NCBI GenBank assembly: GCA_017608235.1
Contig: JAFCGI010000005.1
Span: 46,930 to 110,929 of the forward strand
Reading direction: 5' to 3'
Length of the DNA: 64,000 nt
Origin: Candidatus Pacearchaeota archaeon
GTDB lineage: Archaea; Nanobdellota; Nanobdellia; UBA10117; JAFCGI01
Part shown: piece after piece, positions 1 to 58,876 of the stretch
How positions within the stretch are numbered: the stretch's first letter is position 1
Layout: every line of letters starts with the position of its first letter
Notes under the pieces: model-generated
What the model saw: only the letters and a program-made list of their open reading frames with translations
What the model was told of the DNA's origin: nothing
Databases searched by the model: none
Made by a program: the position numbers and the translations under genes

Positions 1-840
1 ACAATTTTTACATTTAGTTCTGATTTTTTTTACACCTATAATTCTTCCAAATTTTAGCCCAAGAAGTTGTGCAAACATTGCTAGAGTTTTTTCTTTTGTA
101 ATTATTACTGTCCTATTTTGATTATCAACATATCCATCTGATTCTATCCAGCCCTTTAAGAACTCCTCAAACTGATATTTATTCAATCCTAAGAACCATG
201 TTGGCAGGGTTTTACCATGCTTGTTATCATGTCTAAAATGTTTAGTTAGCCATTGTCTAAATGGTCTATCTCTCCAATATAGATTTAATGCTCCATTATG
301 TTCATATTCTGCTATCTTTTCTACTCTAAAGAGTTCTGATATTATAAACTTATAGTAATTAGGAATTGTTCTTTCTTTTTTAGCATTAAATACTAATCCT
401 ATTCTCTCGTTGCTACGATAATTATTTGTAAAGCCGTCTCCTATCCAATATCCTATAAATCTAAAGAACTTATTATCTAAAATAATTCTTTTTGAATATC
501 CAGATGCATCTTTTAATATAATTTCCTTAGGTAACTTTGTGGAGATTTTTAATTTTGGAAAAAAAAGCATGTCATCTTTGGATAAGTCTTCTACATTAGT
601 CCATTGTTTTTTTGTATTTCTTTTAATTAATATTGGATGTTTCTCAGTTATTCGGAATATATTGCCAAAGTAGCTTTGTAGTTCAAAAAGTTTTTCATAA
701 GGATCAATAGTTCTAGAATTAATTGCCATAATTTTCTTAAATTTTCCTGTGTGTGTTAAGACAGAATCTCCTACTTTTACATCTTTAACTGAGATTAAAC
801 CTTTAGATTTTACATATATTGGGGTGCGACCTGTAACACA
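1..840 (-). mobile_element. Intein inserted directly after ligase motif I (KYDGFR|C). Contains a LAGLIDADG homing-endonuclease domain. Partial: its C-terminal splice junction lies beyond the window start
   Basis: The intein begins with Cys (CVTGRTPIYVKSKG...). Two LAGLIDADG blocks are present: FIGYWIGDGF and LKGWIESDGYV. More than 280 aa of non-ligase sequence lie in frame inside the ligase. Confidence 0.6.
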
Positions 841-5132: not shown

Positions 5133-5251
5133 TAATTCTTAGACTTTCTCTAGATTTTTAAACTAACTATTTAATTGTTTGTTCCAATATATAGTTTCTA
5201 ATATATAGATTCGAAAGGTTTATATATAGTTAATTACTGTTAAGTAGTACT

Positions 5252-6319: not shown

Positions 6320-6373
6320 TCTAAATAACTTGAAAAAGAAATAATTATATTTAACTAATTTTCTTTTATTTTT

Positions 6374-7816
6374 ATGACAGATTTTGATTATACTAAATTA
6401 GGATTTAAATCTGGGTTAGAGATTCATCAGAGACTAAAATCTCACAAATTGTTTTGTGATTGTAGTTCTGATATGGCTAAGACTGATTTTAGTATTGAAG
6501 CTATGAGAAAGCTTAGAGCAACTCCTGGAGAATTGGGAAAGATAGATATTGCTGCTGCGTTTGAGGCAGCAAAGGAACAAGAGTTTATTTATCATGGTTA
6601 TAAAGATGAATCTTGTCTAGTGGAGTGGGATGAAGAACCACCGCATCTAATTAATCAAGAAGCTCTGAATATTGCAATTAAGATTGCTATGCTTTTGAAT
6701 TGTAATATTGTTAAAAATATACAGGTTATGAGAAAAACTGTTCTTGATGGTTCTAATACAAGTGGTTTTCAGAGAACCATGCTGATAGGAACAGATGGGT
6801 TTATTGATACTAGTTTTGGCAAGGTTGGAATTAAATATATGATTCTTGAAGAGGAAGCAGCAAAGAATCTTGGCGAGGAAAAAGGAAGGAAAGTTTGGGG
6901 ATTGAACAGATTAGGAATTCCATTAGTTGAGATTGTAACAGATCCTGATATGAAAAATCCTGAACAAGTAAAAGAAGTCGCTGAAAAAATTGGCTTGATG
7001 TTAAGATCTACTGGCTTGGTTCTTAGGGGCTTAGGTACAATTAGACAAGATATTAATGTTTCAATAAAAAAAGGAGATAGAACTGAGATAAAAGGTGTAC
7101 AAGATATAAGGTTAGTTAAAAAAGTCATAGATTCTGAAATTCAAAGACAGCTTGATCTTATCTTTAAAAAGAAAAAAATAGAGAGAACAGTAAGAAGTGC
7201 ATTAGCTGATGGTTCTACAAAATTTATGAGGCCCTTACCTGGTGGAGCAAGACTTTATCCTGAAACAGATCATCCTTTGATTATATTAGATAATAAGAAA
7301 CTTGCAAAAATAAAGAAAGAACTTCCTGAACCTTTAGAAAAGAAAAAAGCTAGACTTGAAAAATTAAATATAAGTAAAGATCTTGTTAAGCAGATTTTAC
7401 ATTCTACTTATTTAGAGTTTTTTGAATTCTTAGTTAAGAATTATAAGAATGTAAGGCCTAGTATAATTGCTAAGCTTTTGTTCTCAATTCCTAAAGAAGT
7501 TGAAAAGAAACTAGGAATCATTAAGGGGGAATTTTCAGAAGAACATTTTTTAGAAATTCTAGAACTACTAGACAAAGGAAGGGTAGCTAAAGAATCAGTA
7601 TTAGATATTATGGTTGAGGTTGCTAAAGGTAATCAAATTAGTAAGATTTGGAAGGATTACAAAATGCTTTCTGATTCTGAAATCAAGAAAAAAGTAGAGG
7701 AGATAAAAAAGAAAAACAAGGATGCTCCTGAAAATAAGATTATTGGAATAATAATGGGTGAACTTCGTGGGAAAGCTGATGCTCAGAAGATCTTAAAAAT
7801 AGTGAAAAGCAAATAA
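6374..7816 (+). CDS. gatE: Glu-tRNA(Gln) amidotransferase subunit E
   Basis: N-terminus MTDFDYTKLGFKSGLEIHQRL is the typical GatE/GatB start. 480 aa with a GatB/YqeY-like C-terminal domain. Confidence 0.85.
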   Translation: MTDFDYTKLGFKSGLEIHQRLKSHKLFCDCSSDMAKTDFSIEAMRKLRATPGELGKIDIAAAFEAAKEQEFIYHGYKDESCLVEWDEEPPHLINQEALNIAIKIAMLLNCNIVKNIQVMRKTVLDGSNTSGFQRTMLIGTDGFIDTSFGKVGIKYMILEEEAAKNLGEEKGRKVWGLNRLGIPLVEIVTDPDMKNPEQVKEVAEKIGLMLRSTGLVLRGLGTIRQDINVSIKKGDRTEIKGVQDIRLVKKVIDSEIQRQLDLIFKKKKIERTVRSALADGSTKFMRPLPGGARLYPETDHPLIILDNKKLAKIKKELPEPLEKKKARLEKLNISKDLVKQILHSTYLEFFEFLVKNYKNVRPSIIAKLLFSIPKEVEKKLGIIKGEFSEEHFLEILELLDKGRVAKESVLDIMVEVAKGNQISKIWKDYKMLSDSEIKKKVEEIKKKNKDAPENKIIGIIMGELRGKADAQKILKIVKSK

Positions 7817-43478: not shown

Positions 43479-43588
43479 ATAGTTAATTACTAAAGAATTA
43501 ATAGTTAATTACAGAAGGATTAATAGTTAATTACTAAAGAATTAATAGTTAATTACAGAAGGATTAATAGTTAATTACTAAAGAATTA
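43479..43588. repeat. Intergenic tandem repeat, 22-nt unit x5 (attaatagttaattac + taaaga or agaagg, alternating)
   Basis: Direct reading. Lies between the rps10 3' end and the start of the membrane-protein gene. Confidence 0.85.
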
Positions 43589-43894
43589 CTCGATAACTTG
43601 TATTTCTATATTAACATCTTTTGGAATTGGTACTCTCATAACTAAATGCAAGGCTCGTTCATCAGCAGCTAAATCAATCATACGCTTATGAATTCTCATT
43701 TCGTATCTTTCCCAGGTTTCTGTACCTTCACCATCTGGGGCTTTTCTTACTGGAATTCTAAGGATTTTTGTAGGAAGATTTATTGGACCTGAATAGTTTA
43801 CTCCTACATTCTTAGCAATATCAGTAATCTGATTAGCTATGCTATTCAATTTGTTTATGTCTGTGCTGTAAAGCTTAATTCTTGCTTTTGGCAT
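43586..43894 (-). CDS. rps10: Ribosomal protein S10
   Basis: MPKARIKLYSTDINKLNSIANQITDIAKNVGVNYSGPINLPTKILRIPVRKAPDGEGTETWERYEMRIHKR is typical S10. Inverted relative to tuf. Confidence 0.8.
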   Translation of the reverse strand: MPKARIKLYSTDINKLNSIANQITDIAKNVGVNYSGPINLPTKILRIPVRKAPDGEGTETWERYEMRIHKRMIDLAADERALHLVMRVPIPKDVNIEIQVIE

Positions 43895-43999
43895 TCTAAA
43901 TAGCTTGGTTTATGGGTTTAAAAAGGTTTTCTTTGCAAGTTTTTTTCTAAGGAACTTTCCTTTTATTACTAATCTTTTGGATAAAAAAATAAAAAAGAA

Positions 44000-44074
44000 T
44001 GGGCCCGGGCGGATTCGAACCGCCGATCCCCGCCTTGTAAGGGCGGTGTCATAACCAGACTAGACCACAAGCCC
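44000..44074 (-). tRNA. tRNA-Val (anticodon TAC)
   Basis: Reverse complement reads GGGCTTG-TG-GTCTAGTCTGGTTATGAC-A-CCGCC-CTTACAA-GGCGG-GGATC-GGCGG-TTCGAAT-CCGCC-CGGGCCC-A. Confidence 0.75.
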
Positions 44075-44077
44075 ATA

Positions 44078-44568: not shown

Positions 44569-44865
44569 TTAGTATTTCTCTTTATTTTTCTCATAATACT
44601 CTTTTCTGTATTCTTTGGGTGTTTTAGAAAATCCATTAAATAACAGTTTTAAACTCTTTTTAATCTCTTTAATCCTTGCTAAATGTTCTTTATATTCTTT
44701 ATCAAATCTTTCCGCATCCTCAATTCTTCTTCTTTTGTTAAATTCCTGAAATTCCTTGACTTCTATCTCTTTTTGAGGAAACAATCTAGAACATAAAGCA
44801 CATTTGTATTTAGGTCTAGAAGAAAGCAATACAAGTTTGTATGAGTAGTTTGGACATCGTGGCAT
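44569..44865 (-). CDS. Zinc-ribbon protein, last gene of the island operon
   Basis: CPNYSYK...CALCSR. The start overlaps the stop of the upstream nuclease gene. Confidence 0.45.
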   Translation of the reverse strand: MPRCPNYSYKLVLLSSRPKYKCALCSRLFPQKEIEVKEFQEFNKRRRIEDAERFDKEYKEHLARIKEIKKSLKLLFNGFSKTPKEYRKEYYEKNKEKY

Positions 44866-45893
44866 TATTTCTTCTCCTTTTTCTTTAAAGCTTCTTTATT
44901 TTCTCTCGCATATTTTATATTCTGAAGTTGTCTTTTCCCATTTTCAATGAGTTCATTAAAAGTAACTATTTTAATATGAGGTCTTAATTGAAAATTCCAA
45001 TTTTTTATAAGTCTCTGTTCCCCATCACTTATATTGTAACCCATAACAATTATTCCGGAAGGGGCTTGTATTTTATAAGTGCCCTCTTCAGATAAACCAC
45101 TATACAAATCTGTTCTACGCAAGTAGAGAATCAATTGATTAATCCCTTGTGCTAGTTCATCAGAAATATATAATCTTGAGTCATCTTTTTTCTTGAAAAA
45201 TGGATTAAGATTTGGGCTTTTGAATTCAAAAACTTTATCTTCCCCAATTTCAGTTTTTATGTGAAGATCTACTGCTAATTGTGGATCAACTGCTTTTTCA
45301 GAAGCCTTAACCTCACAATCTATGCCTAATATCCATTTACTTTCCTTAAGTTTCGTTTTTACTAAATGCTCTTCTCTTTTAGTACCCTTACTAATTCTTT
45401 TTACTTCATTTTCAAATTCAGTTAGTTTAGATTCATAATCTTCTATTTTATCAATTACTTCCTTAGCAAGTGTTATCTCAATTTGTTGTTTACTTAAACG
45501 TTCCTCAGCATCCTTGAGTTTTATTTTTGCTTCTACAAGTTCATTGTTTAACAATTCAACTTTTTCTTTATATATTGAAACTTCTTCTGAAACATCTTCT
45601 ATTTGTTTACCCCAAATTTTATATGCGAATCCTTTAACTGTTTTAGAAAACCATTTGAACCATTCTGAGAGATTAATTCTATTAGGAATCCAAAAACCAG
45701 ATTTATGTGTTTTAAAATAAGGTTTTGTTGATGCAGATTGAACTCTTATACCTTCATATCCTTGTGTATTTTTTTCAGAAGAGATTTTTGATTTATAAGT
45801 TCCTTCTTCAAAACTGTCTGATTTAATCTCTTTAATATGCTCTGATTTATAAAAATCATTTGTTCTCTTCTTTTTAGTTTTCTTTTTTGTCAC
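44865..45893 (-). CDS. PD-(D/E)XK-superfamily nuclease with an N-terminal basic/coiled-coil region (Shedu/DUF4263-like or RecB-like fold)
   Basis: In the C-terminal domain: VDLHIK...KVFEFKSP (D...ExK) and QGINQLILYLRR (QxxxY). The N-terminus is a K-rich segment followed by heptad-like coiled coil. Confidence 0.5.
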   Translation of the reverse strand: MTKKKTKKKRTNDFYKSEHIKEIKSDSFEEGTYKSKISSEKNTQGYEGIRVQSASTKPYFKTHKSGFWIPNRINLSEWFKWFSKTVKGFAYKIWGKQIEDVSEEVSIYKEKVELLNNELVEAKIKLKDAEERLSKQQIEITLAKEVIDKIEDYESKLTEFENEVKRISKGTKREEHLVKTKLKESKWILGIDCEVKASEKAVDPQLAVDLHIKTEIGEDKVFEFKSPNLNPFFKKKDDSRLYISDELAQGINQLILYLRRTDLYSGLSEEGTYKIQAPSGIIVMGYNISDGEQRLIKNWNFQLRPHIKIVTFNELIENGKRQLQNIKYARENKEALKKKEKK

Positions 45894-45894
45894 T

Positions 45895-46572
45895 TTATTT
45901 TTCTCCTCTTATTTTACAAAACCCACACTCTTTACTTGCCTTTGGCTCTTTTCCTTGTAAAATTTTAATGGCTTGTTTGAAAACTTTTTCCCCTCTTTTA
46001 GGATCTGTTTTAATTTTAATCAATTTGGTATCAAATATTACTTCTCCTGTTTCTGTAACATGATTAGGATAATAAAACAATAGATAAGTATAGTCTTCTG
46101 TTTGATAACCATTTTCTCTTAATAAGAAATTATAAAGATCCATTTGATTGATATAATGCTCATGAGTATCTTCTTTTAGAGGAAATCCTCTTGTTTTGTA
46201 ATCTAAAACAATTAGTTTCTTTCCTTTCTTTAGAATATTATCTACTGCTCCATGTAATAAAATATTTGATTTTTTGTCTAGTAATTCTATACCCTTAAAA
46301 TTGCTTCTCCAGATTTTTAGTTTTTCTTTATCATTGAATAATTTACATCCATCATTTGCACATTCTTGTTCTTTTAGTTCTGGTGGAAGTTCTCCTTTTT
46401 CCATAAACCTATCAAAATGCTCTTTTAGAACTTTATCCATCCCTGAAGGTAAACTTGGGAATGGTGTGTCTGGTCTTCTTTCTTTTTTAACTAATTGAAG
46501 CCAGAAACATCTAGGACATTCTAGCATTAAATTCAATGAACTTGGTGATATTTTGTATGTTGATTTATTCAT
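45895..46572 (-). CDS. Cas4-like / RecB-family exonuclease with Fe-S cluster cysteines (DUF83 type)
   Basis: N-terminal ISPSSLNLMLECPRCFWL (the Cas4 signature). LHGAVDNI...LIVLDYKT (D, D/ExK), QMDLYNFLL (QxxxY). C-terminal cysteines CGFCK. Confidence 0.65.
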   Translation of the reverse strand: MNKSTYKISPSSLNLMLECPRCFWLQLVKKERRPDTPFPSLPSGMDKVLKEHFDRFMEKGELPPELKEQECANDGCKLFNDKEKLKIWRSNFKGIELLDKKSNILLHGAVDNILKKGKKLIVLDYKTRGFPLKEDTHEHYINQMDLYNFLLRENGYQTEDYTYLLFYYPNHVTETGEVIFDTKLIKIKTDPKRGEKVFKQAIKILQGKEPKASKECGFCKIRGEK

Positions 46573-48893
46573 TTGAATATTATCTCCTTTAATTTTTTAA
46601 TTTCATTTTCATTTAATAGATTTATTCCTTTTGGATTTTGAATTATATCTCCTTTTAATTTAATAAATGGCTTATTTTTTTTATCAAATGTCAATTCTTG
46701 TTTAAAATAGATAACTCCTGAGATAATATCTGTATTTGGATTTGTTTTATGTATTGAATCGTCTTTTCTCGAAGGATATTGATCTATTGTTTTGCCAGTT
46801 TTTTTATCCATAACTAAGGTTAAAGATAAACTTCCAAAGAAGGTATTGATTATTTCATGTTCATCAATAGTTGAACCACTTTTATCTATAACTATAAAAA
46901 TAATATCACTCCTTTTTTTATTTAACATTTCTTTTAGAGTTACATCTGATTTAATCTGTTTTTTAAATTTATTTTTTATTTTTTTAAGAGCTTCATTAGG
47001 CATGGCTACAGCACTATTACTTAATCTTAAATTCTTATTAATTTCAGGTCTTGTAATCTCAAAGTAAATATCTTTATTGAATAAATTTACCTTAAGATCA
47101 AGATTATTGTTTTTTTTATTTGGTGGAAGGGGCTCTATAACCTCAATATGATTATTATCAAACTTATTTATAAAAATAAGTTCACTAAAATAATTCCAAA
47201 ATTTATTTTCATTAAACAAGTTTTGTTTTATATCCTTGACTATATGTTCTTTTTTCTTGAATTTTTCATTTGCTTTTGTCTCAATTATTTTAATGTTCTT
47301 ATTCAATTCATAAAGATAAGCTTTTGGCCAAAATCTACTTCTAACAAAATCTATCTTAAATGCCTTATTTAATTCAGAATCTTTTTCTGAAATTTTAATA
47401 TCTTCAAGAGTTGGTTGTTCATTTTCTCCAAGCCAAATAAGAGGAGTGTATCGCTTTTTGTTTTCTGCTTCTATAATTACCTCTTTTGCAAATTTATACA
47501 AGTTAGTGTATTTTTTGAGATTTTTTTTAATTATATCAAAGTTGTATTTTTCTTTCCTATTTCTCAATTGAGTTAAAAGATTTTCAGCAAAGTTAATTAA
47601 ATAGTCATAATCGTCTTTAGAAAAAGGTTTTTTGTTTTTCCTTTCATTGTATTTATTTTTATTAAACTCGATGAAATTTTTTTCCTTAGATATTTTAATT
47701 AGATTGTCTATAAGTTTAATAATAACATCTTTATTTTTAATATCCTTAAAAATATTTCCAATTAAGACATTATTTAACTCAAAAAATAAATATTTTTCAT
47801 CTTTATTCTTTAGATTAAATTTTAGTATCTGATCCAAAGCATAGCTTATATGGAATTTTGAGAGTGTTTTAAATAAATGAGGTAATGTAACAATATATAA
47901 TTTTGATTTTTTATTTTGGATTCTCTTGTAATTTTCAAGGATATATCTAATAAAAAGTCTATTCTTTTTTACTAATTCCTCAAGTGCCCAGTCAAAATGT
48001 CTTAATTTAAATTCCATATCTTTATTTAACCAATAAATAAACAAATCAGATATTTGTTTATATGGCTGAGGAAACTTCCTTAATACTTCAACGATTTTGT
48101 CTATTATGATATAATCCATATCTTTAGAATATTTAATAAGTTCAAAGATTTGTTTTTGGTTTAATAAGTCTTTATATGTTAACCTATCAAACAATAAATA
48201 AGTAATATTTTTGTCCTTTAGTTTTATTAAATCAAAGAGTTTATTATAAAAATAGTCTTTATTTTTATTAAAAAATATTAAACAAACATTAATGAATTCT
48301 TGCAGTATTTTTTTATCTTGGTTTTTAGATATTTTATCAAAATAAGAATAAGCTTCTTTACTTAGTCTTTGGGATTCATATTTATACAAAATAGCTTTTA
48401 ATATAGAATTAGTTTGTGGATATTCAAGCTTTTTATTTAAAAATTCCTCCAGGATTGAATCATTTTTTACTGAATATCCTCCAAGGATTAAACCAGCCAC
48501 TACCTTAAAATCACTATCTTTAGATTTAGTTATTATCTTCTTATAAAATTGTAGAGCAAATGGTTTATTTTTTCCAATATCTTTTAGTATATTTAGGAAA
48601 GGCCCTTGAGCCATATCTCTTTTTATTTTATTGTTTATTTTTTCTAATAATTCAAGGTATTTATCTGTGTTATCTGCTAACTCATATGTAACAGTAGTAA
48701 TCAATTCAAAATATCCCCAAAAGTCAGAACTAAAGAGAAAATCATCAATTAATTTATATTTATCCTTTTCAGATAGCTTAGATTTATGACTATTGTAAAC
48801 TTTGATTTGTTCTTCAAATTTGTAATATTTACCTTTTAAGTCTTCTTCAAGGCTCATATTCTTGGCACCATCTTCCATTTTTCTTGATTGCAT
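46569..48893 (-). CDS. Large (774 aa) predominantly alpha-helical protein with a distinct C-terminal domain, function unknown; no P-loop found
   Basis: Extremely K/N/I/F/Y-rich and more AT-rich than the neighbouring genes. Start and stop overlap both flanking genes in the operon. Confidence 0.45.
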   Translation of the reverse strand: MQSRKMEDGAKNMSLEEDLKGKYYKFEEQIKVYNSHKSKLSEKDKYKLIDDFLFSSDFWGYFELITTVTYELADNTDKYLELLEKINNKIKRDMAQGPFLNILKDIGKNKPFALQFYKKIITKSKDSDFKVVAGLILGGYSVKNDSILEEFLNKKLEYPQTNSILKAILYKYESQRLSKEAYSYFDKISKNQDKKILQEFINVCLIFFNKNKDYFYNKLFDLIKLKDKNITYLLFDRLTYKDLLNQKQIFELIKYSKDMDYIIIDKIVEVLRKFPQPYKQISDLFIYWLNKDMEFKLRHFDWALEELVKKNRLFIRYILENYKRIQNKKSKLYIVTLPHLFKTLSKFHISYALDQILKFNLKNKDEKYLFFELNNVLIGNIFKDIKNKDVIIKLIDNLIKISKEKNFIEFNKNKYNERKNKKPFSKDDYDYLINFAENLLTQLRNRKEKYNFDIIKKNLKKYTNLYKFAKEVIIEAENKKRYTPLIWLGENEQPTLEDIKISEKDSELNKAFKIDFVRSRFWPKAYLYELNKNIKIIETKANEKFKKKEHIVKDIKQNLFNENKFWNYFSELIFINKFDNNHIEVIEPLPPNKKNNNLDLKVNLFNKDIYFEITRPEINKNLRLSNSAVAMPNEALKKIKNKFKKQIKSDVTLKEMLNKKRSDIIFIVIDKSGSTIDEHEIINTFFGSLSLTLVMDKKTGKTIDQYPSRKDDSIHKTNPNTDIISGVIYFKQELTFDKKNKPFIKLKGDIIQNPKGINLLNENEIKKLKEIIFK

Positions 48894-49567
48894 CGGTATA
48901 AATACCCATTTGGGATTATTTCAAAATTTTTTGTACTATTTTTTTTGCAAATTACAACGTCACATCCATAAATGTATGGACTTCCTGTAAACTGAAAATC
49001 AATCAAAGAGATGTTATTTAAAGTATTAACTGAGTGTCTAATTATTTGTTTAAAATTTCTTTTTAGTTCATAGGATTTTAATTCATTTAATTGAGATAAA
49101 ATATAATTTCCTCTTCGCAAATCATTATTTGAATCAAGACAAGTCTCTTTACCAGATCCTATGAATCCTTTTTCAATAGATTTGATCTCATAGTCTTTTA
49201 TGTTATTGGAAACCATTTTCGAGAAATCAATTTTGTAACACTTAAATGAAGCGATATTAAGTAGAATACAAGAAACATCAATTTTTGAGAGTCGGGGATA
49301 TGTTTTTTTAATGATAGCATATATTTTTTTGAATTGTAGCCTGTTGTTGATATTTGCGTAAAACATATCTTTTATTTTTATTATATTAGAACTATTCCCT
49401 GCAAAACCCAATATCCAATTTTTTCTTATTTCTACTTTTTTTGCAAAATTATGTGGAAAGACTTCATATCCTTCAGTCGCCCGGATAGTATCATGTATAT
49501 CAGTTTCCAACCTATCTGCAACAAGTACCCACGCATTCTTCAATGGAAAGGCAAAAATAGAAGTCAT
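48854..49567 (-). CDS. HslV/proteasome-beta-like N-terminal-nucleophile hydrolase (Thr directly after the initiator Met, no propeptide)
   Basis: [17 protein letters not shown] aligns with HslV [31 protein letters not shown] aligns with HslV [16 protein letters not shown] matches the HslV/proteasome GSGG block. SD GAGGGG lies 11 nt upstream. Confidence 0.55.
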   Translation of the reverse strand: [237 protein letters not shown]

Positions 49568-49634
49568 TTTTCATTAACCCCTCAACAAAATTGTAATTTC
49601 TTCTTTGACCAACCCATATAATTCATGAACCATT

Positions 49635-52340
49635 TTATTTTTTATATTCCCTAAAATTTCTCTCTAATTCTTTAAAAGAGGATGGGTGATATTTATCAAA
49701 ACTCTCTTCGTCCACATAAATAAAGTCATATTTAGCCTTTTTCTGAGACTTGTTTAGATCTTCACACCATTGTTTTAATCTCTGCATTTTTAGTGGAACA
49801 TCTAAGTCTTCCTTACCTTTAGTTTCAATTATGAAGATTTCTTTATCTGATTTTTTAACAATAAAATCTGGATAATACTCTGAAATATTTCCATCTTTAT
49901 TTTTATAATCTATTTTAAAATGGACACCAAAATAATTTTTGACGTAAGATACTATCTCCCCTTCTGGACAATTTTCTAAAAAATTAGCAAATCTTAATTC
50001 TAAATCGCTATCTCCTATAATCTTATTAAAGATGCTTTTTTTAGGAACAAGATATCCTTGCTGTTTTACAACAAAAGACCTACATTGACTGAGTTTTATG
50101 TAATTTCTAATTTCTGCTTCTCCTTTATCTTGAACTGTTAAATCATTAATTTCTTTCTTAAAAGTTTCAATTATTGTTCTTGTTGCTTCTATCTCAGATA
50201 GATTTCTTAAAATATTCAAATCTTCTAAGTTAACCTTTTCTTTGAACAATTCATTTTGAATAAAATTCTTGACTTTTTCATATAGAATGTCATAACCACT
50301 AATTAATCTTAATTCCTTCATTATACTTTGAGTAAAAAAACCAATTGCTCCCTGATAATTGATAATGGCATTGCTGTCTAATACTGTTTTATGGTGTGCT
50401 TCTTCCTTAGAATCTTCTTTGTTCACTACATATTTAAAAACAATTTCTTTCTTTTCTTCTTCTGAAAATTTTTGAATGTTTATTTTTTTATGTTTAAATT
50501 TAGAAACTTCTAACTCAGAAAGATTTTTGTATTCTCTGAATATTCTTGGAGTTAAAACAGGAATTTCTATATCTAATTTTTTAAGATTTTTCTTTTTATT
50601 CTCTTTGTCTATTTCAACAACAAGAGGTGTTTTGGCAGGAGTCCTATCTCCCATTTTTCTTTTTTCCAGTTCAACACCTTCATTTTTTATAGACTCAACA
50701 AATTCCATAAAAGCAGGAGTTCCAACAACACTAACATACTCTTCCACATCTTCTCCCCTGTACATTCTTCTTAATCCTCTTCCTAATGTCTGCTCAGGTA
50801 AGATATTGCTTTTTGCTGAATATGCTCTTAATCCAACAATTGTTGTAACATTTTTTACATCCCATCCTTCTTTTAGCATTAAAACAGAAACAATAGCTTT
50901 GTATTTGCTATCCGGATTATCAATATCATTAGCTGCTTTTCTTAATTCTTTTAGTTCTTTTTCTTTTTTTCCAGTCACTGATTCAGAGATTTCTCCATTA
51001 TTTTTAGTATGAATTACTAAAACAGCATCTTTTAGATCTGAATATGTTTCTTCCAAATATTTTTTCACTTCATCACAATTTTTAGTATCATCAGTCATAA
51101 CAAACAGAACTGCTTTTTTCCCAGCCTTTATCTGCTCATTATAAACTTTCTTCCATTCTTCATATCCAAGATGAATAAAGTCCCTATATTTCTCTGTAAA
51201 GTTTGAACTCTTTATTTCATTTAATTTTGCTCTACTTGCTTCATCTGGAACAAGAGGTTTTTTGACTACATCTTGATATATGGCCTCTACCAAAGGATAA
51301 TCAGAAATAGTTTGAACAAAAATTGCTCCATTAACCTGCTTTGGTGTAGCTGTTGTGTCTACTTGTAAAGATACCTTGCTTCCCTTTTGTAAAAGTTTAT
51401 TATGAATATCTTGAAGTGATTTAAACCAAGCCATTCTTTCATCATGTATATGGTGCGCTTCATCATTTAGAATTACTAACTCGTCAACATCTCTCACAAT
51501 CTCACTTAAATCAACTTTAGATTCATTTGTTGGTCCAACTGGTTTTTCTCCTAAAAAATAATCCATAGTATTATCATCTTCAGAAGAAGGAGTTTTTGTT
51601 CTGCTATCAAAAACTCTGTGGATATTTGTTAAAAATATATTTCCTACACTTTTTACAACGTTTGCATCATCCTGAATATATAAAGATAATTGAAAATCAT
51701 CTTGCCAGTTTTGGCCATCAAAACCATTTGGCGGAAGAACTGGATCTTCATAGAATACTCTCAACCCATCGAAGTCAGCTCTTATTCTGTCTAAGACAAT
51801 AATATTTGGAGTAATTATTAAGAAATTTCTTGCTAAATCTGAATCTTCTTCATATAATTTATGAAAATAACTCCATGCTAAGACTAGACTTAGAACTTTT
51901 GTTTTTCCAGAACCAGTAGCCATCTTGATAACAAATCTTCTCCATGTTTCTGCAAACATTCCGGTAGACACTGCACCAGAACTATCATATCTCATTAAAT
52001 CATGTTTATCCTCAACTTTAGCTACTTCATACAAGTAAATTATTGATTCTATTGCTTCTCTTTGGCAAAAATAATATTTGAATAAAGAAATATTTCCTTC
52101 TGAGTCCTCTATAGGATGGTCGGTTTCAAACCACCATTTCAAAAGAGCCTTGCTTGTTTCACTAGCTCCTTCGTAATTTGATTCTCTCCATTTTTTAACT
52201 TCTTTTCTTATTTTATCCACTAATGGAGGCAGAAGTTTTTGATATCCTTCTTCCCTTAATGCTTCATCAGCAGGAAACCATCTAATTGAAGGGTCTAAAA
52301 TATCATGAGGCGATCTTGGGAAATCTTTGTGAAGAGCCAT
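49635..52340 (-). CDS. res: Type III restriction-modification Res subunit (SF2 helicase plus C-terminal endonuclease)
   Basis: Walker A MATGSGKTKV, DEAH box LNDEAHHI, and the C-terminal nuclease motif YYPDFIVKK...FIIETKGKE. 901 aa. Confidence 0.8.
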   Translation of the reverse strand: MALHKDFPRSPHDILDPSIRWFPADEALREEGYQKLLPPLVDKIRKEVKKWRESNYEGASETSKALLKWWFETDHPIEDSEGNISLFKYYFCQREAIESIIYLYEVAKVEDKHDLMRYDSSGAVSTGMFAETWRRFVIKMATGSGKTKVLSLVLAWSYFHKLYEEDSDLARNFLIITPNIIVLDRIRADFDGLRVFYEDPVLPPNGFDGQNWQDDFQLSLYIQDDANVVKSVGNIFLTNIHRVFDSRTKTPSSEDDNTMDYFLGEKPVGPTNESKVDLSEIVRDVDELVILNDEAHHIHDERMAWFKSLQDIHNKLLQKGSKVSLQVDTTATPKQVNGAIFVQTISDYPLVEAIYQDVVKKPLVPDEASRAKLNEIKSSNFTEKYRDFIHLGYEEWKKVYNEQIKAGKKAVLFVMTDDTKNCDEVKKYLEETYSDLKDAVLVIHTKNNGEISESVTGKKEKELKELRKAANDIDNPDSKYKAIVSVLMLKEGWDVKNVTTIVGLRAYSAKSNILPEQTLGRGLRRMYRGEDVEEYVSVVGTPAFMEFVESIKNEGVELEKRKMGDRTPAKTPLVVEIDKENKKKNLKKLDIEIPVLTPRIFREYKNLSELEVSKFKHKKINIQKFSEEEKKEIVFKYVVNKEDSKEEAHHKTVLDSNAIINYQGAIGFFTQSIMKELRLISGYDILYEKVKNFIQNELFKEKVNLEDLNILRNLSEIEATRTIIETFKKEINDLTVQDKGEAEIRNYIKLSQCRSFVVKQQGYLVPKKSIFNKIIGDSDLELRFANFLENCPEGEIVSYVKNYFGVHFKIDYKNKDGNISEYYPDFIVKKSDKEIFIIETKGKEDLDVPLKMQRLKQWCEDLNKSQKKAKYDFIYVDEESFDKYHPSSFKELERNFREYKK

Positions 52341-54508
52341 TATTTATTTCCCCCTTTTAATTCTATAACTTTCGTTGTATCGTTTCCAAAAATATCAACA
52401 ACTTTAATAGCAATTTTTCTTTTTCCAGAAATTTTCCTGAAGGGAGTTTTTAATTCTAATTCTCTATTCTTCTTTGTTCTAAATGACTGCCATTCATTTT
52501 CAAAGATATAATCTCCTGTCCATTTTTCTTCGTATTCTTTTTCAAAATCCAGCTTTCCTGTTTGTTTCTTTTGTTTTTCTATTTTGATTATTTCTTTTTT
52601 GCTTTCAAAATCAAAATCTACTGCCCAATAATCAATCCAGTCAGTCCATTTTTTAGTTAAAACATCCTGTGTAACAATTCCATTTTTATCTTTTGATACC
52701 TTGATTATATTTCCATTCTCTACTACAATTTTATTGCTTCCATTTTTTAAACTGGCTTCAACATGTTTTATTGAATCCTGATTATAGAAAACAGAAAAAT
52801 CAGCTAATTCAATAGCCACGCCATCTTTAATATAATGTGGTGTAACTTCAATATATGAAACATCAGTAAATACAACTTGATTCTTTTCAACTGCTCTTTT
52901 ATCGAATACTTCTCTTGGGATATGTTTTAGTGCTAAATCAACACCTTTGGCTTTTGCTTCTTCTTGAATATGGGGAAATAATCCCATTTCAAATTCAAAT
53001 GCAAGAATGTCAACTTTAGTTATTTTGTTTTTAATTGCTTCCTCGATAGCCTCTTCAATAAATAATCTTCCCACTGGTAAATTTATAGGACCAACTGCAA
53101 CTAATCTATTTAATTTCTTTCCTGAAAAGGTATTATATCCTGTAACTCCCTCTGCTCTGTAAGCATGAAGGATTAGTTTAACAAAATCTTTTTCCTTTTT
53201 TGCTATTTGTTTTTGTTTTTCTTCATCCCTTAAATTTGAATTTACTCCAACATAATGTTGTCTTTCATATTTTCCAAGATTTAATATCTCAAATGCCCTG
53301 AAATCTTTTCCATCTTTTTTTAATTGTCTTTGAACATCAATCATCCTTTTTCTTGTTGTGTGAATTGAGAACTTTCCTAAATCAGAACCAATCCATTTTC
53401 TTCCTAATTTTTCTGCAACTGCTAAGGTAGTTCCTGAACCACAGAAGAAATCGCAGACAATGTCGCCTTCATTTGATGATGCTTTTATTATTCTTTTCAT
53501 CAATTTTTCAGGTTTTTGTGTAGGATAGTCTAATAATTCGCTTACTATTCTTCCAACTGGTGAAATATCTACCCACCAATCTTCTAATTGTTTTCCTTCT
53601 TCCTCAAGAGCTCTCAGTTTCTCTTCACTAGTTTCAGTTGTTCTAAATCCTAAACCTCCCTTACCATGTATGCCAGATTTATGTTTGATTCTTTGGATGT
53701 TAAAATTAGTATTCTCAGATTTAGCATAGAAAAGGATAGTATCATGTTTTCTTGTAAACCCTTTTTTATTTTTTAATGGAGAACTGTAACACCAAATAAT
53801 TTCATTCCTAAAATTCTGTTTTCCAAACACTTCATCCAACAGCAACCTCATATATCCAGAGACTCTCCAATCACAATGAACATAAATACTTCCATCAGGA
53901 GCAAGTAAGTCTCTCATTAGCATTAACCTTTCATACATCATTGCAATAAAACTATCTGCTCCCTTGCCCCACGTATCTCTGTAAGCCAATTCTTCCAAAA
54001 CATTCGGTTGCTTTGTAAATTCATCATCTCCAATATTTATCTTCATAGAGAAATCAGCACCAACATCAAATGGTGGATCAATATAAATTAATTTAATTCC
54101 TCCTTGTTTTTCAATCTCTTCTCTTAATGAACCATTTTTCAAACTTGAGAGAATTAATTTGTTATCTCCCCAAATAAGCTTATTAGTCCATCCTTTTAAT
54201 TGTCTCCCTCTTGTATCTGTTTCAAAATCAATTAAGCTAACTTGTTTTCCTCCCCCTAAACCTTCTTTTCTTGGTTCATCCACTTGTTCAATAACTTGAA
54301 AAGGAAGAACGACATTAGTAACATCTCTAGATTTTCCGTTCCAAACTAATTCAACTTCCCTTTTATCTCCAAATAATAAAAATCTATATTCTTCTGGTAA
54401 GGGAACTCCCTTTTTTAAGAAACTTGTTATATCTCTAATTTCATTGTCAGATAAGACTATTTTGGTTTTTGATTCAAATTTTGATTTAACTTGTTTCTTT
54501 TTAGCCAT
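52340..54508 (-). CDS. mod: Type III restriction-modification Mod subunit (beta-class N6-adenine/N4-cytosine DNA methyltransferase)
   Basis: Motif IV DPPF (IYIDPPFDV) lies upstream of the YPTQKP block and motif I FFCGSGTT. Its stop overlaps the res start. Confidence 0.8.
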   Translation of the reverse strand: MAKKKQVKSKFESKTKIVLSDNEIRDITSFLKKGVPLPEEYRFLLFGDKREVELVWNGKSRDVTNVVLPFQVIEQVDEPRKEGLGGGKQVSLIDFETDTRGRQLKGWTNKLIWGDNKLILSSLKNGSLREEIEKQGGIKLIYIDPPFDVGADFSMKINIGDDEFTKQPNVLEELAYRDTWGKGADSFIAMMYERLMLMRDLLAPDGSIYVHCDWRVSGYMRLLLDEVFGKQNFRNEIIWCYSSPLKNKKGFTRKHDTILFYAKSENTNFNIQRIKHKSGIHGKGGLGFRTTETSEEKLRALEEEGKQLEDWWVDISPVGRIVSELLDYPTQKPEKLMKRIIKASSNEGDIVCDFFCGSGTTLAVAEKLGRKWIGSDLGKFSIHTTRKRMIDVQRQLKKDGKDFRAFEILNLGKYERQHYVGVNSNLRDEEKQKQIAKKEKDFVKLILHAYRAEGVTGYNTFSGKKLNRLVAVGPINLPVGRLFIEEAIEEAIKNKITKVDILAFEFEMGLFPHIQEEAKAKGVDLALKHIPREVFDKRAVEKNQVVFTDVSYIEVTPHYIKDGVAIELADFSVFYNQDSIKHVEASLKNGSNKIVVENGNIIKVSKDKNGIVTQDVLTKKWTDWIDYWAVDFDFESKKEIIKIEKQKKQTGKLDFEKEYEEKWTGDYIFENEWQSFRTKKNRELELKTPFRKISGKRKIAIKVVDIFGNDTTKVIELKGGNK

Positions 54509-54755
54509 TTTTCATCTCTTTAACAGCTTCTTCAGGTCCTTTTAGTTTGTAAAGTCTTATTCTGGAATCTTGAGGATCTAGTCTAGCTTCTAACCAGCCA
54601 TATTTTTTAAGGTCAGAAATGCACAGGCTTACGACCCTCTCATCCTTCTCTTTAAGGGCTTCTATGGCCTGTTTATGGGTAAATTCTTCATTTCTAAATT
54701 TATTCCAAAGTGTTGAATATCTTTTCATAATCCATCGTGGAAGCGGTTCTATCAT
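54501..54755 (-). CDS. Small winged-helix-like protein upstream of and overlapping mod; possible regulator (controller-like)
   Basis: MIEPLPRWIMKRYSTLWNKF...LDPQDSRIRLYKLKG. Start placed at the internal Met; the longer track ORF N-terminus looks spurious. Confidence 0.35.
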   Translation of the reverse strand: MIEPLPRWIMKRYSTLWNKFRNEEFTHKQAIEALKEKDERVVSLCISDLKKYGWLEARLDPQDSRIRLYKLKGPEEAVKEMKNG

Positions 54756-54949
54756 ATTAAGTCCCTCATGTGCATCACATAAGTAATATGTAGTCCTATT
54801 TAAATATATTGTTTTGCATTTTAAGCCAGAAATAAAGTGTATTCTACAGAATAACAATGTTTAAATAGTAGTTATGCTTATTACATAAGTATTATGTATA
54901 TAAAATAAGTATCAAGAGAGACTCTCCGCAAAGATCATCTCTCCTGGTA

Positions 54950-56526
54950 ATGGAGTCCGCGATGAACTCCACAATAGAAAGAATAGAAAAGGAACTTAAT
55001 AAAACTTTTGAGTCTGTTAGTGAGAAATGGATTAAAACCTCTTCTGTTCTTAAAAAATTGAACTTACAATTAATAGAACAAAGACAATCTAAATTCAATC
55101 CAGAAAGCTTAATTAAATTATATCTTTACAGAAGAATAAAAGGCATCCATTATTATGAAAAGTTAATAGAACATTTAGAAAATAATGAAACTGATTCTTA
55201 TGATCTTGGATTTTCAAATGGAAATAATAACAAGTTAGAATTTCCAACAAAAAGAGCATTTAATAAATTCTTCAAAAATAAAATTGATGATAATCTCAAA
55301 TTACAATTAGATAATCTTACTAAAAATATTCTAAGAATAGCAACTCAAAAAGGAATAGTCTTAGATTTAGAATTAGTCAATAAAGCAATAAAAGATAAGA
55401 AAGATAAAAAGAGAGAGAGAAAAGAAAAGCATTTCATGAAGCCACTAAATTGGTAAAGAAATTAGTCTATCCTCAAATTGATATTAAAATTAAAGAGAAT
55501 GGAAAATTTACAACTAAGGATTTATTGGATGTTTTAGTTCATATTGCTTATTCTCATGATTTTACTACAAACGGCTCTTCTACATTCCAGGAATTATATC
55601 CTGACTTAAAAGCTCCTTCTGGAGATTTAATGTTATATCATTTTTCTAAATTGCAATCAGTAGATAAAATAAAAGATATGTTTATTTCAATATTTGATGT
55701 TATTTTTAACTTTGCTAAACAGAATTACAAGCTGTTAAATAGAAGAAAAATAGACATTGCGTTTGATGTCCACAAAATCCCCTATTATGGCAATAAGAAT
55801 GATTTTTATGTAACAGAAGGAAAACATGAAAGAGGAACAACTCACTTCTATCAGTTCTTAACATGCTCAATAGTCGTTGCTGGGCAGAGATTTAGTATTG
55901 ATGCTATTCCTATTCATAAATTTGATAGTATTGAAAATTTAGTAGATCAAAGTTTAGAAAGGGTTAAACAAAAAATTCATATCAATAAAGCATATCTTGA
56001 TAGAGGTTTTGATAAACCAAAAGTAATCAACGTTATCAAAGCTCATAAAGTAAAGTTTATCATGCCAAAAGTTAGAAGTGAAACTGTAAAGGCATGGATG
56101 AGAAAATCTGAGGAATGCAAGGCGAGAGTTATTGAAAACTTTGAAATTGGTAAAGGAGAGAATAAGGCTATTGTGAACTTAATCCTTGTAGATGATGAAG
56201 AAGGGATAAAGAGAGCTTTCATTACTAATTTTCACATTCCTGAACAACTATCACATTATCTTTATAATTGGTATTCAAAAAGATGGGGAATTGAAACAGG
56301 GTACGGGCAGTTTGACCATGATTTTAAAGCAAAAACCACTACTAAGAATTATCACATTAGATTATTCTATTTCTTATTTTCAGTATGTTTGTATAATCTT
56401 TGGGTCTTGGTAAATATTTGTGTTTCTTTATCTCTTCATGGTAGATTGTCAGAAAAGCCAATAATTACATCTAAGTTATTTGCAGTTGTTCTTTACAAAG
56501 TTGCTTATGAAGATCCTCCAACGTGA
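54950..56526 (+). mobile_element. IS4-family (DDE_Tnp_1) transposase gene, split into two overlapping ORFs (54950..55456 and 55450..56526) by a frameshift in an A-rich tract. Terminal inverted repeats not resolved
   Basis: DDE residues in IAFDVH, AYLDRGF and the signature YSKRWGIETGY. Both frames are open across the agaaagataaaaagagagagagaaaagaaaag tract. Confidence 0.6.
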
Positions 56527-56714
56527 TGGTTAATCCTGTTAGTTATAGAATTGTTCTAGTTGGAACTCTCCTATTTCTCTCTTATTTCTAATAAATCACA
56601 ACCTAAAATTTTAACTTCTCCAGAATTTTCTTAAGATTTAATGAGAACCAAAGATAAAATCTTATAAACATAGCCATTCTATTTATCAATTCAGTTTACT
56701 TTCTATCTACTGTA

Positions 56715-57689
56715 TTAATATTCTAAGGTTTTTTTAAAAATATCAAATACTCTTTCCAAGTCTTTATGATTTGCTTTATCTCTTAGCTCAATCCTAGCTG
56801 AAGCCTTAATCATGGATATTATTGACTCTATTGTTTTGGGAGTTACCTTATATAACAATGAATGTTCTTTAGATTTAAGAGTTGTGGAAAAATCTTTTAT
56901 TAGGTCTAAAAACTGATTTGGAATTTCTACCTTTATTTGATTTGCATGATTAATATATTCTCTAATAAAATCCATATCTGCTTGTTTTGGCTTTTGTTTT
57001 TCAGACATAACTATCTTTTCTGCTATGTCTGCAAATTGTTCTAAAGAGGCATCCCTAATAATAAATGCTAAATTAAAATCTGATAGTTTTGTATAAGAAG
57101 GTATTTGTGACTTAATAATATGTATAGAATAATCTTCAATATTCTTTTTTGCATCTATAACTTTTGGTAGATTTTTTGAAGATATTTTAGATAATGAATC
57201 TAATATACTGGTTTTTCCAGTTCCAGAATTTCCAAATAATAGCATGTTTAGTGAATCCTCTGTGAATAATTGAAGCATGCATGCTTGCTTAACTTCTCTA
57301 AGTCCTACTATATTAGAAGCAATATATTGTGGAATTATATTCCAAGCTCTTTCTTTAAACTCTTTGAATTTTTCTTTAAGATATTTTCTTTCTATCTCTT
57401 GATTTAATATTGTTAGATCTTTTTCTTGCGATTCTATTTTTGGAATTATATTTTTTCCAGAAATTAGGAAAGAGAAATCCTTTTTCTTTCGAACTAATTT
57501 AGCTTTTTTTTGCTTGATTTTTGTTTTTATAAATGAGATTTGATCTTTGCTTAGATATTCTGATAAGAAATTTAGATCTGTTTTTTCTTCTTTAGTTAAA
57601 GGTCTTAATCTAAGAAATAAATCAATAGTATTATTTAGACTATTTTCTATTATTTGAATTGTACCTTCCTTAGCAGTTTTCTTTGCCAT
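56715..57689 (-). CDS. Mini-MCM-like AAA+ ATPase (MCM helicase core homolog, 324 aa)
   Basis: IVGLREVKQACMLQLF...NMLLFGNSGTGKTSIL parallels the MCM IYGHEDVKKA..LLVGDPGTAKSQ region. Walker A GNSGTGKT. Lies 20 nt from the tRNA-Met 3' end. Confidence 0.5.
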   Translation of the reverse strand: MAKKTAKEGTIQIIENSLNNTIDLFLRLRPLTKEEKTDLNFLSEYLSKDQISFIKTKIKQKKAKLVRKKKDFSFLISGKNIIPKIESQEKDLTILNQEIERKYLKEKFKEFKERAWNIIPQYIASNIVGLREVKQACMLQLFTEDSLNMLLFGNSGTGKTSILDSLSKISSKNLPKVIDAKKNIEDYSIHIIKSQIPSYTKLSDFNLAFIIRDASLEQFADIAEKIVMSEKQKPKQADMDFIREYINHANQIKVEIPNQFLDLIKDFSTTLKSKEHSLLYKVTPKTIESIISMIKASARIELRDKANHKDLERVFDIFKKTLEY

Positions 57690-57823: not shown

Positions 57824-58262
57824 TTGCTTTTCCTTAAGGTTGGGTTTATTTTTAAGTGTTACCAATTCAAATAAATCTTGCTATCTACTTATTTTAACAA
57901 AAAGAGAAAATATTTTAAATAGAATGTAAACTTAACATAAAAGAATGGAAGATTTAGTTAATATTATAATTTTGTTGTATGAAAACTATAAAGTTACTAA
58001 ATTTATTGCTAACACAAAGGAGCAATATTCTATAATCATGTGGAAGAAAGAATTTAATAAATATGGTTTAGACCTTCTTAAAAGTAAAAAAGTAATAACT
58101 GAAATGGAAATTGATTCAATAGTAACAATTGATGATATAGGTTGTATTTCTGAGTATAGTATAGACAACATACAAAAGTATCCTATGAAAGAAGTTTTTA
58201 TTGATAATCAACCAACTCTAGAGCCATACTACAAAGAGATCTTAGGCAATCTAAGGTATGAA

Positions 58263-58397
58263 TGGACCGGTCGGGATTCGAACCCGAGGCCTCTCCATAG
58301 CAATAAATAAGTATTTAACTTAAATATTCATGCCAAGGAAGCGATCTATTGTCCTGCATTGTCTAATGACATAGCAACCGGACTGATCTACCGGCCC
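58263..58397 (-). tRNA. tRNA, isotype unresolved. The precursor is about 135 nt with apparently more than one intron, including one in the D-loop
   Basis: Reverse complement: acceptor GGGCCGG/CCGGTCC+A; T-arm TCGGG-TTCGAAT-CCCGA; D-stem GATC...GATC. An internal TTGCTATG is repeated twice. Confidence 0.45.
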
Positions 58398-58665: not shown

Positions 58666-58765
58666 AGTTTCACCTCAATTTATATAATAAAAATTAGGAA
58701 CTTATCCTTTAAAAATCTAATGAATATCTCTTTAATTTTTAAAGAAATGTATAAAGAATGATAAA

Positions 58766-58840
58766 TGGGCCCGACAGGATTCGAACCCGCGACCTATCGG
58801 TTAAGAGCCGATCGCTCTGACCAGGCTGAGCTACGAGCCC
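58766..58840 (-). tRNA. tRNA-Lys (anticodon CTT)
   Basis: Reverse complement reads GGGCTCG-TA-GCTCAGCCTGGTCAGAGC-G-ATCGG-CTCTTAA-CCGAT-AGGTC-GCGGG-TTCGAAT-CCTGT-CGGGCCC-A. Confidence 0.75.
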
Positions 58841-58876
58841 ATAAGTCAGAAGTAAAATTTGTAATTAAAAATGTTT

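Follow-up and report, generated by a model that had tools for sequence, protein, structure and literature searches.

A proteasome-like threonine hydrolase coupled to a nuclease-like solenoid protein in restriction-associated loci of DPANN archaea

The two-gene cassette described here lies in a stretch of 64,000 nucleotides from the genome of Candidatus Pacearchaeota archaeon (GenBank assembly GCA_017608235.1, contig JAFCGI010000005.1, positions 46,930 to 110,929 of the forward strand), which we refer to as the window and in whose own numbering all positions are given. Its first gene encodes a protein of 237 amino acids that resembles proteasome beta subunits and the bacterial peptidase HslV (the hydrolase), and its second gene, read from the same strand and overlapping the first, encodes a much larger protein in which an alpha-solenoid is followed by a nuclease-like domain (the partner). 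The window is part of an archaeal chromosome, with genes for split RpoA'/A'', S7, aEF-2 and aEF-1alpha at 33.6-42.9 kb, and the cassette is embedded there in an eight-gene co-directional array that runs from a helix-turn-helix (HTH) protein through Type III Mod, Type III Res, the hydrolase, the partner, a Cas4-like protein and an SduA_C protein to an open reading frame (ORF) of 98 amino acids (Table 1).

The hydrolase gene, its family and its fold

The initiator methionine of the hydrolase is followed directly by threonine. The start codon is preceded by an AAA codon and, before it, by an in-frame TGA; this stop codon, two codons upstream of the ATG, leaves no propeptide to be encoded, and a Shine-Dalgarno-like or ribosome-binding-like element, GAGGGG, is found 5' of the start. 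The members of the family all begin with M-T in the same manner, one of them as V-T from a GTG codon. Methionine aminopeptidase takes off a methionine that stands before threonine, and the nucleophile of E. coli HslV is exposed in this way. The placement of the threonine, and the VLVAD, GFAG and GSG blocks that had been taken as HslV hallmarks, were already claimed in an earlier reading of the letters by a model that ran no database searches (the sequence-only reading); that claim holds on both counts, the upstream TGA precluding a propeptide and all three blocks being found at coordinates that we could verify.

The hydrolase belongs to a family that is small and patchily distributed. A word-indexed search of 5.8 billion proteins recovered five homologues, an exhaustive hidden Markov model (HMM) search of 1.84 billion cluster representatives recovered 19, and a re-search with a profile recovered three more; altogether the family comprises about 30 sequences, nearly all of them unnamed metagenomic singleton clusters, and includes homologues at 50-78% identity as well as more distant relatives. 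Those loci that lie in named genomes belong to Candidatus Woesearchaeota, Pacearchaeota and 'Nanoarchaeota UBA9966', all of them DPANN archaea. A Patescibacteria host label attached to one hydrolase locus concerns a 3.7-kb contig of a metagenome-assembled genome and was treated as a possible binning error. Neither a tblastn search of phage genomes with the hydrolase nor a scan of viral contigs with the partner alignment produced a match.

In an alignment of 23 sequences the residues T2, D18, K44, G137 and G195 (the last two being the equivalents of Gly128 and Gly170) are present throughout and G57 in 22 of the 23, and across the family conservation is 90% or more at M1, G57, G195, P197 and G201. 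After addition of the most divergent clades, which brings the alignment to 28 sequences with 16-76% identity to the window hydrolase, T2, D18, K44 and G137 are still invariant (28/28). Because these four positions do not vary even down to 16% identity, strong constraint acts, to judge from the alignment, on what is the catalytic triad in a Thr1 hydrolase of the proteasome type; and because homologues with conserved active-site columns exist, the hydrolase is a real gene and not a chance ORF.

Single-sequence searches of Pfam, NCBIfam, PADLOC and PDB sequences with the 237-residue protein returned nothing meaningful. When the 23-member family profile was compared with PDB sequences, the top match was T. 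brucei HslV (E=0.0016), followed by Plasmodium beta7 (E=0.005), in alignments that pair Thr1 with Thr1, xxAD with LGDR (Asp17), the invariant lysine with Lys33 and GFAG with GFAG. The PHROG annotated as 'peptidase HslV family' matches the window hydrolase (E=8e-4) and 10 of 23 relatives (best E=2.3e-5), and any other PHROG is matched by at most one family member. The AlphaFold2 (AF2) model of the hydrolase is an N-terminal nucleophile (Ntn) alpha-beta-beta-alpha sandwich with the proteasome order of strands and helices (S1-S10, H1-H4), in which H1 is predicted at residues 62-73 and H2 at residues 79-89, and in which an insertion at the S3/S4 site is present and modelled at low confidence; structural matches are confined to the proteasome family. 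Its predicted fold and its active site place the hydrolase in the proteasome-like Ntn hydrolase superfamily (MEROPS T1-type fold).

The partner protein and its linkage to the hydrolase

The partner ORF as called mechanically extends to position 48893 and would encode 774 amino acids, and its homologues start at what is Met13 of this ORF (48857). The model of the protein (AF2, mean predicted local distance difference test, pLDDT, 86.8) is accompanied by a match of the PADLOC OloA model to residues 55-495, about 440 residues in all (E=4.5e-6); this OloA model matches 5 of 13 partner family members (best E=2.2e-9) and also haloarchaeal homologues (E=5e-10 and 6e-7), scores that are modest for a repeat protein. 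Within the C-terminal alpha/beta domain, E571, D599 and E612 are invariant and a D...E-x-T/K/Q motif can be recognized; this domain appears PD-(D/E)XK-like, and nuclease activity may be supposed for it. Foldseek comparison of the partner with the PDB found HEAT/ARM solenoids only and nothing on the C-terminal domain, the partner profile found nothing relevant among PDB sequences, and the PADLOC OloB model matched none of the genes tested. Neither a Walker A motif (by regular expression) nor a nucleoside triphosphatase domain (by Pfam) was detected in the partner.

The linkage between the two genes was assessed in 15 distinct loci (the window, L001/2, L003-8, L009/10, L011, L012/13, L014, L015, L016/17, L018/19, L020/21, L022, L023, L024 and L025). 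A partner homologue of about 720-775 amino acids is present in every one of them, and the hydrolase lies directly upstream in 14, usually with an overlap of 4-40 nucleotides; the copy in L025 was missed by the HMM and was assigned by eye (MTSIITFQL...GDT...GAG...GSG...TGHP). The hydrolase thus has an obligate, translationally coupled partner of about 760 amino acids and opens a conserved cassette of two genes, no third gene being conserved beside the pair across the 15 loci. The exception is L014, where the partner gene (4934-7216) stands alone between hsdS and hsdR. Partner-family proteins also occur alone on haloarchaeal plasmids, as 'hypothetical proteins' of about 695 amino acids (L026, 5393-7486 of NZ_CP135525.1; L027, 5399-7477 of NZ_CP034941.1), with no hydrolase-like ORF within 7 kb; the homologue from Halomontanus rarus is related over its full length (hhalign probability 99.6%, E=5e-24, 656 aligned columns). 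Since the partner is also found without the hydrolase, the latter is an add-on to a pre-existing partner family.

The two genes do not evolve in step. In 38 of 45 locus pairs the hydrolase diverges faster than the partner, and its divergence is incongruent with that of the partner (r=0.35); between the window and L022, for example, the partners are 64% identical and the hydrolases only about 20-30%, and when L009, L011, L023 and L025 are compared with the window alongside L022 the corresponding values are 56-64% and about 20-30%. Between the equivalents of Asp17 and Lys33, members of the hydrolase family have a spacer whose length ranges between about 15 and about 45 residues. The faster, incongruent divergence of the hydrolase together with this variation suggests module shuffling or arms-race-type evolution. 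As the spacer varies in length and sits at the site of the S3/S4 lid of connectase, it points, by analogy, to a variable element that may serve the recognition of substrates or of the partner, a reading that fits the fast and incongruent evolution of the hydrolase.

Restriction-modification context and the surroundings of the window

Ten of the 15 distinct loci, the window and L014 included, have the cassette abutting or inside restriction-modification operons of Type I, IIG or III. Type IIG/MmeI-like enzymes adjoin it in L003, L011, L012 and L022, and Type I genes do so in L016 (then hsdS), L018/19 (cassette between hsdS and hsdR), L023 (after hsdR) and L024 (between hsdR and hsdS). At L001, L009, L020 and L025 no restriction genes are in view. 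The cassette of L015 is carried by a 12.6-kb contig (1-12623) that also encodes a tyrosine integrase and a family-B DNA polymerase of the protein-primed kind and that probably represents a small integrative element or a virus-like replicon from a DPANN archaeon, and one of the partner homologues on haloarchaeal plasmids adjoins a BREX-5 system. A keyword search of a literature collection returned no paper that joins proteasome-like or HslV-like proteins with defence islands or restriction-modification.

In the window, the array is tightly packed with overlapping or 1-nucleotide junctions, the hydrolase starting 67 nucleotides past the Res stop codon, and the upstream HTH, Mod and Res genes may be functionally linked to the cassette. 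The cassette itself (46500-49500) has the lowest GC content of the region (0.23-0.25 vs 0.29-0.35 in the flanking restriction and housekeeping genes), which is consistent with a separate acquisition. Among the 191 ORFs of the window, phmmer searches found no HslU-like gene, no canonical proteasome gene (alpha or beta) and no HslV gene, the queries being HslV and 20S beta sequences. The sequence-only reading had pictured the hydrolase as an Anbu/BPH-type orphan embedded in a nuclease operon, with no HslU-like AAA+ gene nearby and with a 774-residue downstream protein devoid of a P-loop. The operon, with its Type III Mod-Res, Cas4-like and SduA_C genes, the missing HslU and the missing P-loop all agree with that picture; the hydrolase does stand outside any proteasome or HslU context, and the part that has to be given up is its being an orphan, given the dedicated, coupled partner in 14 of 15 loci.

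Table 1. Features of the cassette and of the neighbouring genes in the window
Feature	Position	Strand	Remarks
Proteasome/HslV-like Ntn hydrolase gene, 237 amino acids	48854..49567	minus	ATG start, TGA stop, 714 nucleotides
Hydrolase initiator Met codon	49565-49567	minus	
Hydrolase Thr nucleophile codon	49562-49564	minus	Thr2 of ORF
Hydrolase VLVAD	49514-49528	minus	residues 14-18
Hydrolase D18	49514-49516	minus	Asp17 equivalent
Hydrolase K44	49436-49438	minus	Lys33 equivalent
Hydrolase GFAG	49397-49408	minus	residues 54-57; oxyanion Gly equivalent (Gly47; G57)
Hydrolase GSG	49151-49159	minus	residues 137-139
Hydrolase DFQFTG	48983-49000	minus	Asp166/Ser169/Gly170 equivalents
67-nucleotide spacer, Res stop to hydrolase start	49568..49634	minus	holds in-frame TGA and GAGGGG
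Partner gene, likely about 762 amino acids	46569..48857	minus	Met13 start; ATGA overlap with hydrolase stop
Partner N-terminal alpha-solenoid (HEAT/adaptin-like, OloA-like)	47409..48857	minus	ORF residues about 13-495
Partner C-terminal alpha/beta domain, PD-(D/E)XK-nuclease-like	46572..47252	minus	ORF residues 548-774
Partner invariant E571	47181-47183	minus	
Partner invariant D599	47097-47099	minus	
Partner invariant E612	47058-47060	minus	
Winged-helix/HTH-like ORF	54501-54857	minus	weak Pfam HTH_27 match only, E=0.062
Type III methyltransferase Mod	52340-54508	minus	Pfam N6_N4_Mtase; PADLOC MTase_III E=7.5e-118
Type III restriction helicase-nuclease Res	49635-52340	minus	Pfam ResIII; PADLOC REase_III E=6e-22
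Cas4-like PD-(D/E)XK nuclease gene, 225 amino acids	45895-46572	minus	ATGA overlap with partner stop
Shedu-type SduA_C nuclease gene	44865-45893	minus	coiled-coil N-terminus
98-amino-acid ORF	44569-44865	minus	

Of the genes downstream of the partner, the Cas4-like gene strongly matches an uncharacterised PHROG (E=2.6e-33) and has a homologue after the partner in L022, a second Woesearchaeota genome (8277-8942, E=2.8e-99), and the SduA_C gene and the 98-amino-acid ORF do not recur at other loci and are peculiar to the window. A three-gene unit that would include the Cas4-like gene was considered and rejected, because this gene follows the partner in 2 of 15 loci only.

The array is bounded on one side by tRNA-Val (43999-44075) and on the other by an insertion sequence (IS), an MCM fragment and tRNA-Lys (58765-58841). 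The IS-like element, next to the restriction-modification operon (54950-57689), consists of two overlapping ORFs (168 amino acids, and a DDE_Tnp_1 transposase of 358 amino acids), after which comes a truncated MCM-like gene of 324 amino acids, with the MCM lid and a partial P-loop, as found in integrated archaeal elements. At the edge of the island, between a 178-amino-acid ORF and tRNA-Val, lies a 22-nucleotide tandem repeat in at least 4 copies (AATAGTTAATTAC[A/T][G/A]AAG[G/A]ATT, 43500-43609). Positions 58258-58295, for which ARAGORN makes no call, look like a tRNA 3' half (79% to the region of tRNA-Lys at 58761-58798) and could be a partial tRNA or the attachment-site remnant of an integration event. 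A scan for sigma-70 promoters and for terminators stayed at background and does not apply to archaea.

A candidate defence module and its likeness to known systems

Taken as a whole, the data are best accounted for by an explanation toward which, in our judgement, the balance tips modestly: the hydrolase would belong, as an enzyme of the active type that lacks a propeptide, to the proteasome-beta/HslV superfamily, within a very small, DPANN-restricted family that lies outside current family models, and the cassette would be a defence module in which the Thr1 hydrolase controls a nuclease-like effector. Methionine aminopeptidase would expose Thr1 of the hydrolase, which would then bind the solenoid of the co-translated partner, the solenoid taking the place that the AAA+ unfoldase has in HslV; the hydrolase could thereby switch or regulate the nuclease-like effector by proteolysis, the cleavage falling either on the partner itself or on a protein, viral or restriction-related, that the solenoid holds. 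The cassette might on this account be an Olokun-like antiviral module that backs up the neighbouring restriction system, or it may guard that system in the manner of PrrC. We infer each of these steps, from the removal of Met and the formation of the complex to proteolysis, nuclease activity and the role in defence. More speculative, and in our estimation rather more apt to fail than to hold, is the sharper proposal that a proteasome-family threonine protease was recruited as a regulatory or activating subunit of an Olokun-derived antiviral system of DPANN archaea, in which a HEAT solenoid-nuclease replaces the AAA+ unfoldase and which is built into Type I, IIG or III restriction-modification operons, to guard them or to provide a second line.

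Several observations weigh against the interpretation of the cassette as a defence module built around an active proteasome-type hydrolase. The equivalents of Ser129 (S138, 15/23), Asp166 (D190, 16/23) and Ser169 (T194, 15/23) are retained in the subclade of the window and not throughout the family; the AF2 model of the hydrolase has a pLDDT of 67, with residues 21-40 and 173-199 below 50; and the sequence matches that tie the hydrolase to HslV are weak (E about 1e-3 to 1e-5). Pfam Proteasome (PF00227) does not match the window hydrolase and matches 1 of 23 relatives at E=0.22, no Pfam Proteasome, NCBIfam HslV or PADLOC model rises above threshold for the hydrolase, and hhalign alignments of the family profile with single HslV and T. 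acidophilum beta sequences, used for illustration only, fall in the right register with a probability <5%. Finally, L014 and the haloarchaeal plasmids carry a conserved partner but no hydrolase, so that the hydrolase is not needed for the core function of the partner. The sequence-only reading is upheld, subject to two corrections, which concern the dedicated partner and the sense of 'HslV-type'. The six catalytic residues that it had singled out for alignment divide into three that are invariant (Thr1, Asp17 and Lys33) and three that are not, and its description of an HslV-type, propeptide-less proteasome-beta homolog stands for the active site, the lack of a propeptide and the fold, and not for membership of the HslV family. 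Because no HslV or Proteasome model matches at threshold and no HslU is found, 'HslV-type' denotes resemblance. The unrelated fold that the same reading had named as a possible outcome of profile searches did not emerge, profile and structure matches both pointing to the proteasome family.

Four other explanations were considered, and all rank below the defence model. The hydrolase could be a self-compartmentalising ring protease, forming HslV/BPH-like stacks of hexamers or heptamers for general or stress proteolysis with no immune role, and its HEAT partner an ATP-independent activator or adaptor, similar in concept to Blm10/PA200 on the 20S proteasome. The complete predicted proteasome fold with H1-H4 would allow rings to form, the partner is a long alpha-solenoid, reduced DPANN genomes might make use of a minimal protease, and the four loci with no restriction genes in view fit such a role; we nevertheless regard it as unlikely, given an extremely rare and patchy family (about 30 sequences, almost all singletons), a low GC content in a tRNA-flanked island with an IS, the position in restriction-modification operons at 10 of 15 loci and on a mobile element at one more, the conserved nuclease-like domain of the partner, and a divergence faster than, and incongruent with, that of the partner, which would be unusual in a housekeeping protease. 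Somewhat less probable still is a connectase-like role, whereby an active Thr1 enzyme would serve as a specific ligase, transpeptidase or amidase that modifies the partner or a restriction subunit: the hypervariable spacer (about 15-45 residues) at the site of the connectase lid between S3 and S4 and the single dedicated partner, comparable to the single dedicated substrate of connectase, would suit it, but H1 and H2 are predicted in the hydrolase, unlike in connectase, the best sequence matches are HslV peptidases, and there is no positive sign of ligation.

The order of a small upstream and a large downstream gene with translational coupling, reminiscent of toxin-antitoxin pairs, as well as a partner that can stand alone and a hydrolase that diverges fast, might instead suggest a non-catalytic binder, either antitoxin- or immunity-like or a scaffold like 20S alpha, that masks the nuclease-like partner. 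Inactive subunits of the proteasome family such as alpha lose Thr1, however, whereas in 28 sequences of the hydrolase family the threonine after the methionine and the equivalents of Asp17, Lys33 and Gly128 are invariant, as is expected of catalysis, and we consider this alternative improbable, slightly more so than a connectase-like one. That there is no real gene at all, or an unrelated fold that mimics the motifs by chance, is scarcely credible: no curated family model matches, and the genome is AT-rich with a biased protein composition, but an ORF of 714 nucleotides persists in a region of 25% GC, about 30 loci carry syntenic partners and the structural match is to proteasomes only.

Should the sharper proposal hold, it would link proteasome-type proteolysis with the immunity of prokaryotes for the first time and would reveal a regulatory logic that is new among proteasome homologues. 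Should the cassette be a defence system, a Thr1 protease would join the list of immune proteases, a proteasome-like enzyme would be seen with an ATP-independent solenoid partner, and what is known of defence would grow to include DPANN archaea, in which immunity has been little mapped. Proteasome homologues other than the 20S proteasome and HslV are mostly uncharacterised, and connectase, the one whose function has been studied, proved to have an activity both unexpected and useful. The present family carries a functional clue in its single coupled partner and its recurrent position in restriction-modification loci, and the cassette, being compact (two genes of modest size), is directly testable.

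Compared with known systems, the hydrolase is like HslV (ClpQ) in that Thr1 can be exposed by Met removal alone from its M-T start, and differs from it in length (237 amino acids vs about 175, the D17-K33 interval containing a variable insertion and the C-terminus being extended), in the lack of an HslU AAA+ partner in the window or at any of the 15 loci, and in occurring with a HEAT-nuclease-like partner in DPANN hosts, HslV being bacterial. The beta subunits of the 20S proteasome shed a propeptide by autocatalysis and assemble with alpha subunits; the hydrolase lacks a propeptide, and the window showed no alpha gene. Operons of Anbu contain ATP-grasp, transglutaminase-like and alpha-E genes; the neighbours of the hydrolase, in contrast, are restriction-modification and nuclease genes. 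PrrC, a latent anticodon nuclease of the EcoprrI Type I locus, is an ABC-ATPase-like tRNase encoded between hsdS and hsdR, a gene position that recurs in L014 and L018/L019 and by analogy with which a guard function is conceivable here; PrrC bears no relation in sequence or fold to the proteins of the cassette.

Connectase (DUF2121), a monomeric protein ligase of methanogens that is itself a proteasome homologue, shares with the hydrolase an archaeal host, a Thr1 without propeptide, a dedicated protein partner or substrate and an insertion at S3/S4, but it lacks helices H1 and H2 and carries a two-helix specificity lid between S3 and S4 (PMC8665760), whereas H1 and H2 are predicted in the hydrolase, which shows no sequence match to connectase and has another genomic context. 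The anti-phage system Olokun is a nuclease complex of OloA and OloB (bioRxiv 10.1101/2025.07.10.664194), the former adaptin-like and the latter a PD-(D/E)XK protein; the cassette resembles it in the OloA-matching solenoid, the associated PD-(D/E)XK-like domain and the defence-island context, and differs in that the nuclease-like domain is fused to the solenoid, that OloB has no match, that a proteasome-like hydrolase is added and that the lineage is archaeal. Fuchs, Alva and Lupas (2021) delineated 22 further clusters of proteasome homologues (WPH, PHI, ACC, PMI-1..6 and others), all without propeptides, the absence of a propeptide being the rule among non-20S proteasome homologues (PMC8665760). 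The pairing with an OloA-like or nuclease-like protein in restriction-modification operons is absent from their description of these families, a comparison made by text only (PMC8665760). On our best reading, the hydrolase would represent a new and very rare family of proteasome homologues in an Olokun-related, restriction-associated cassette of DPANN archaea.

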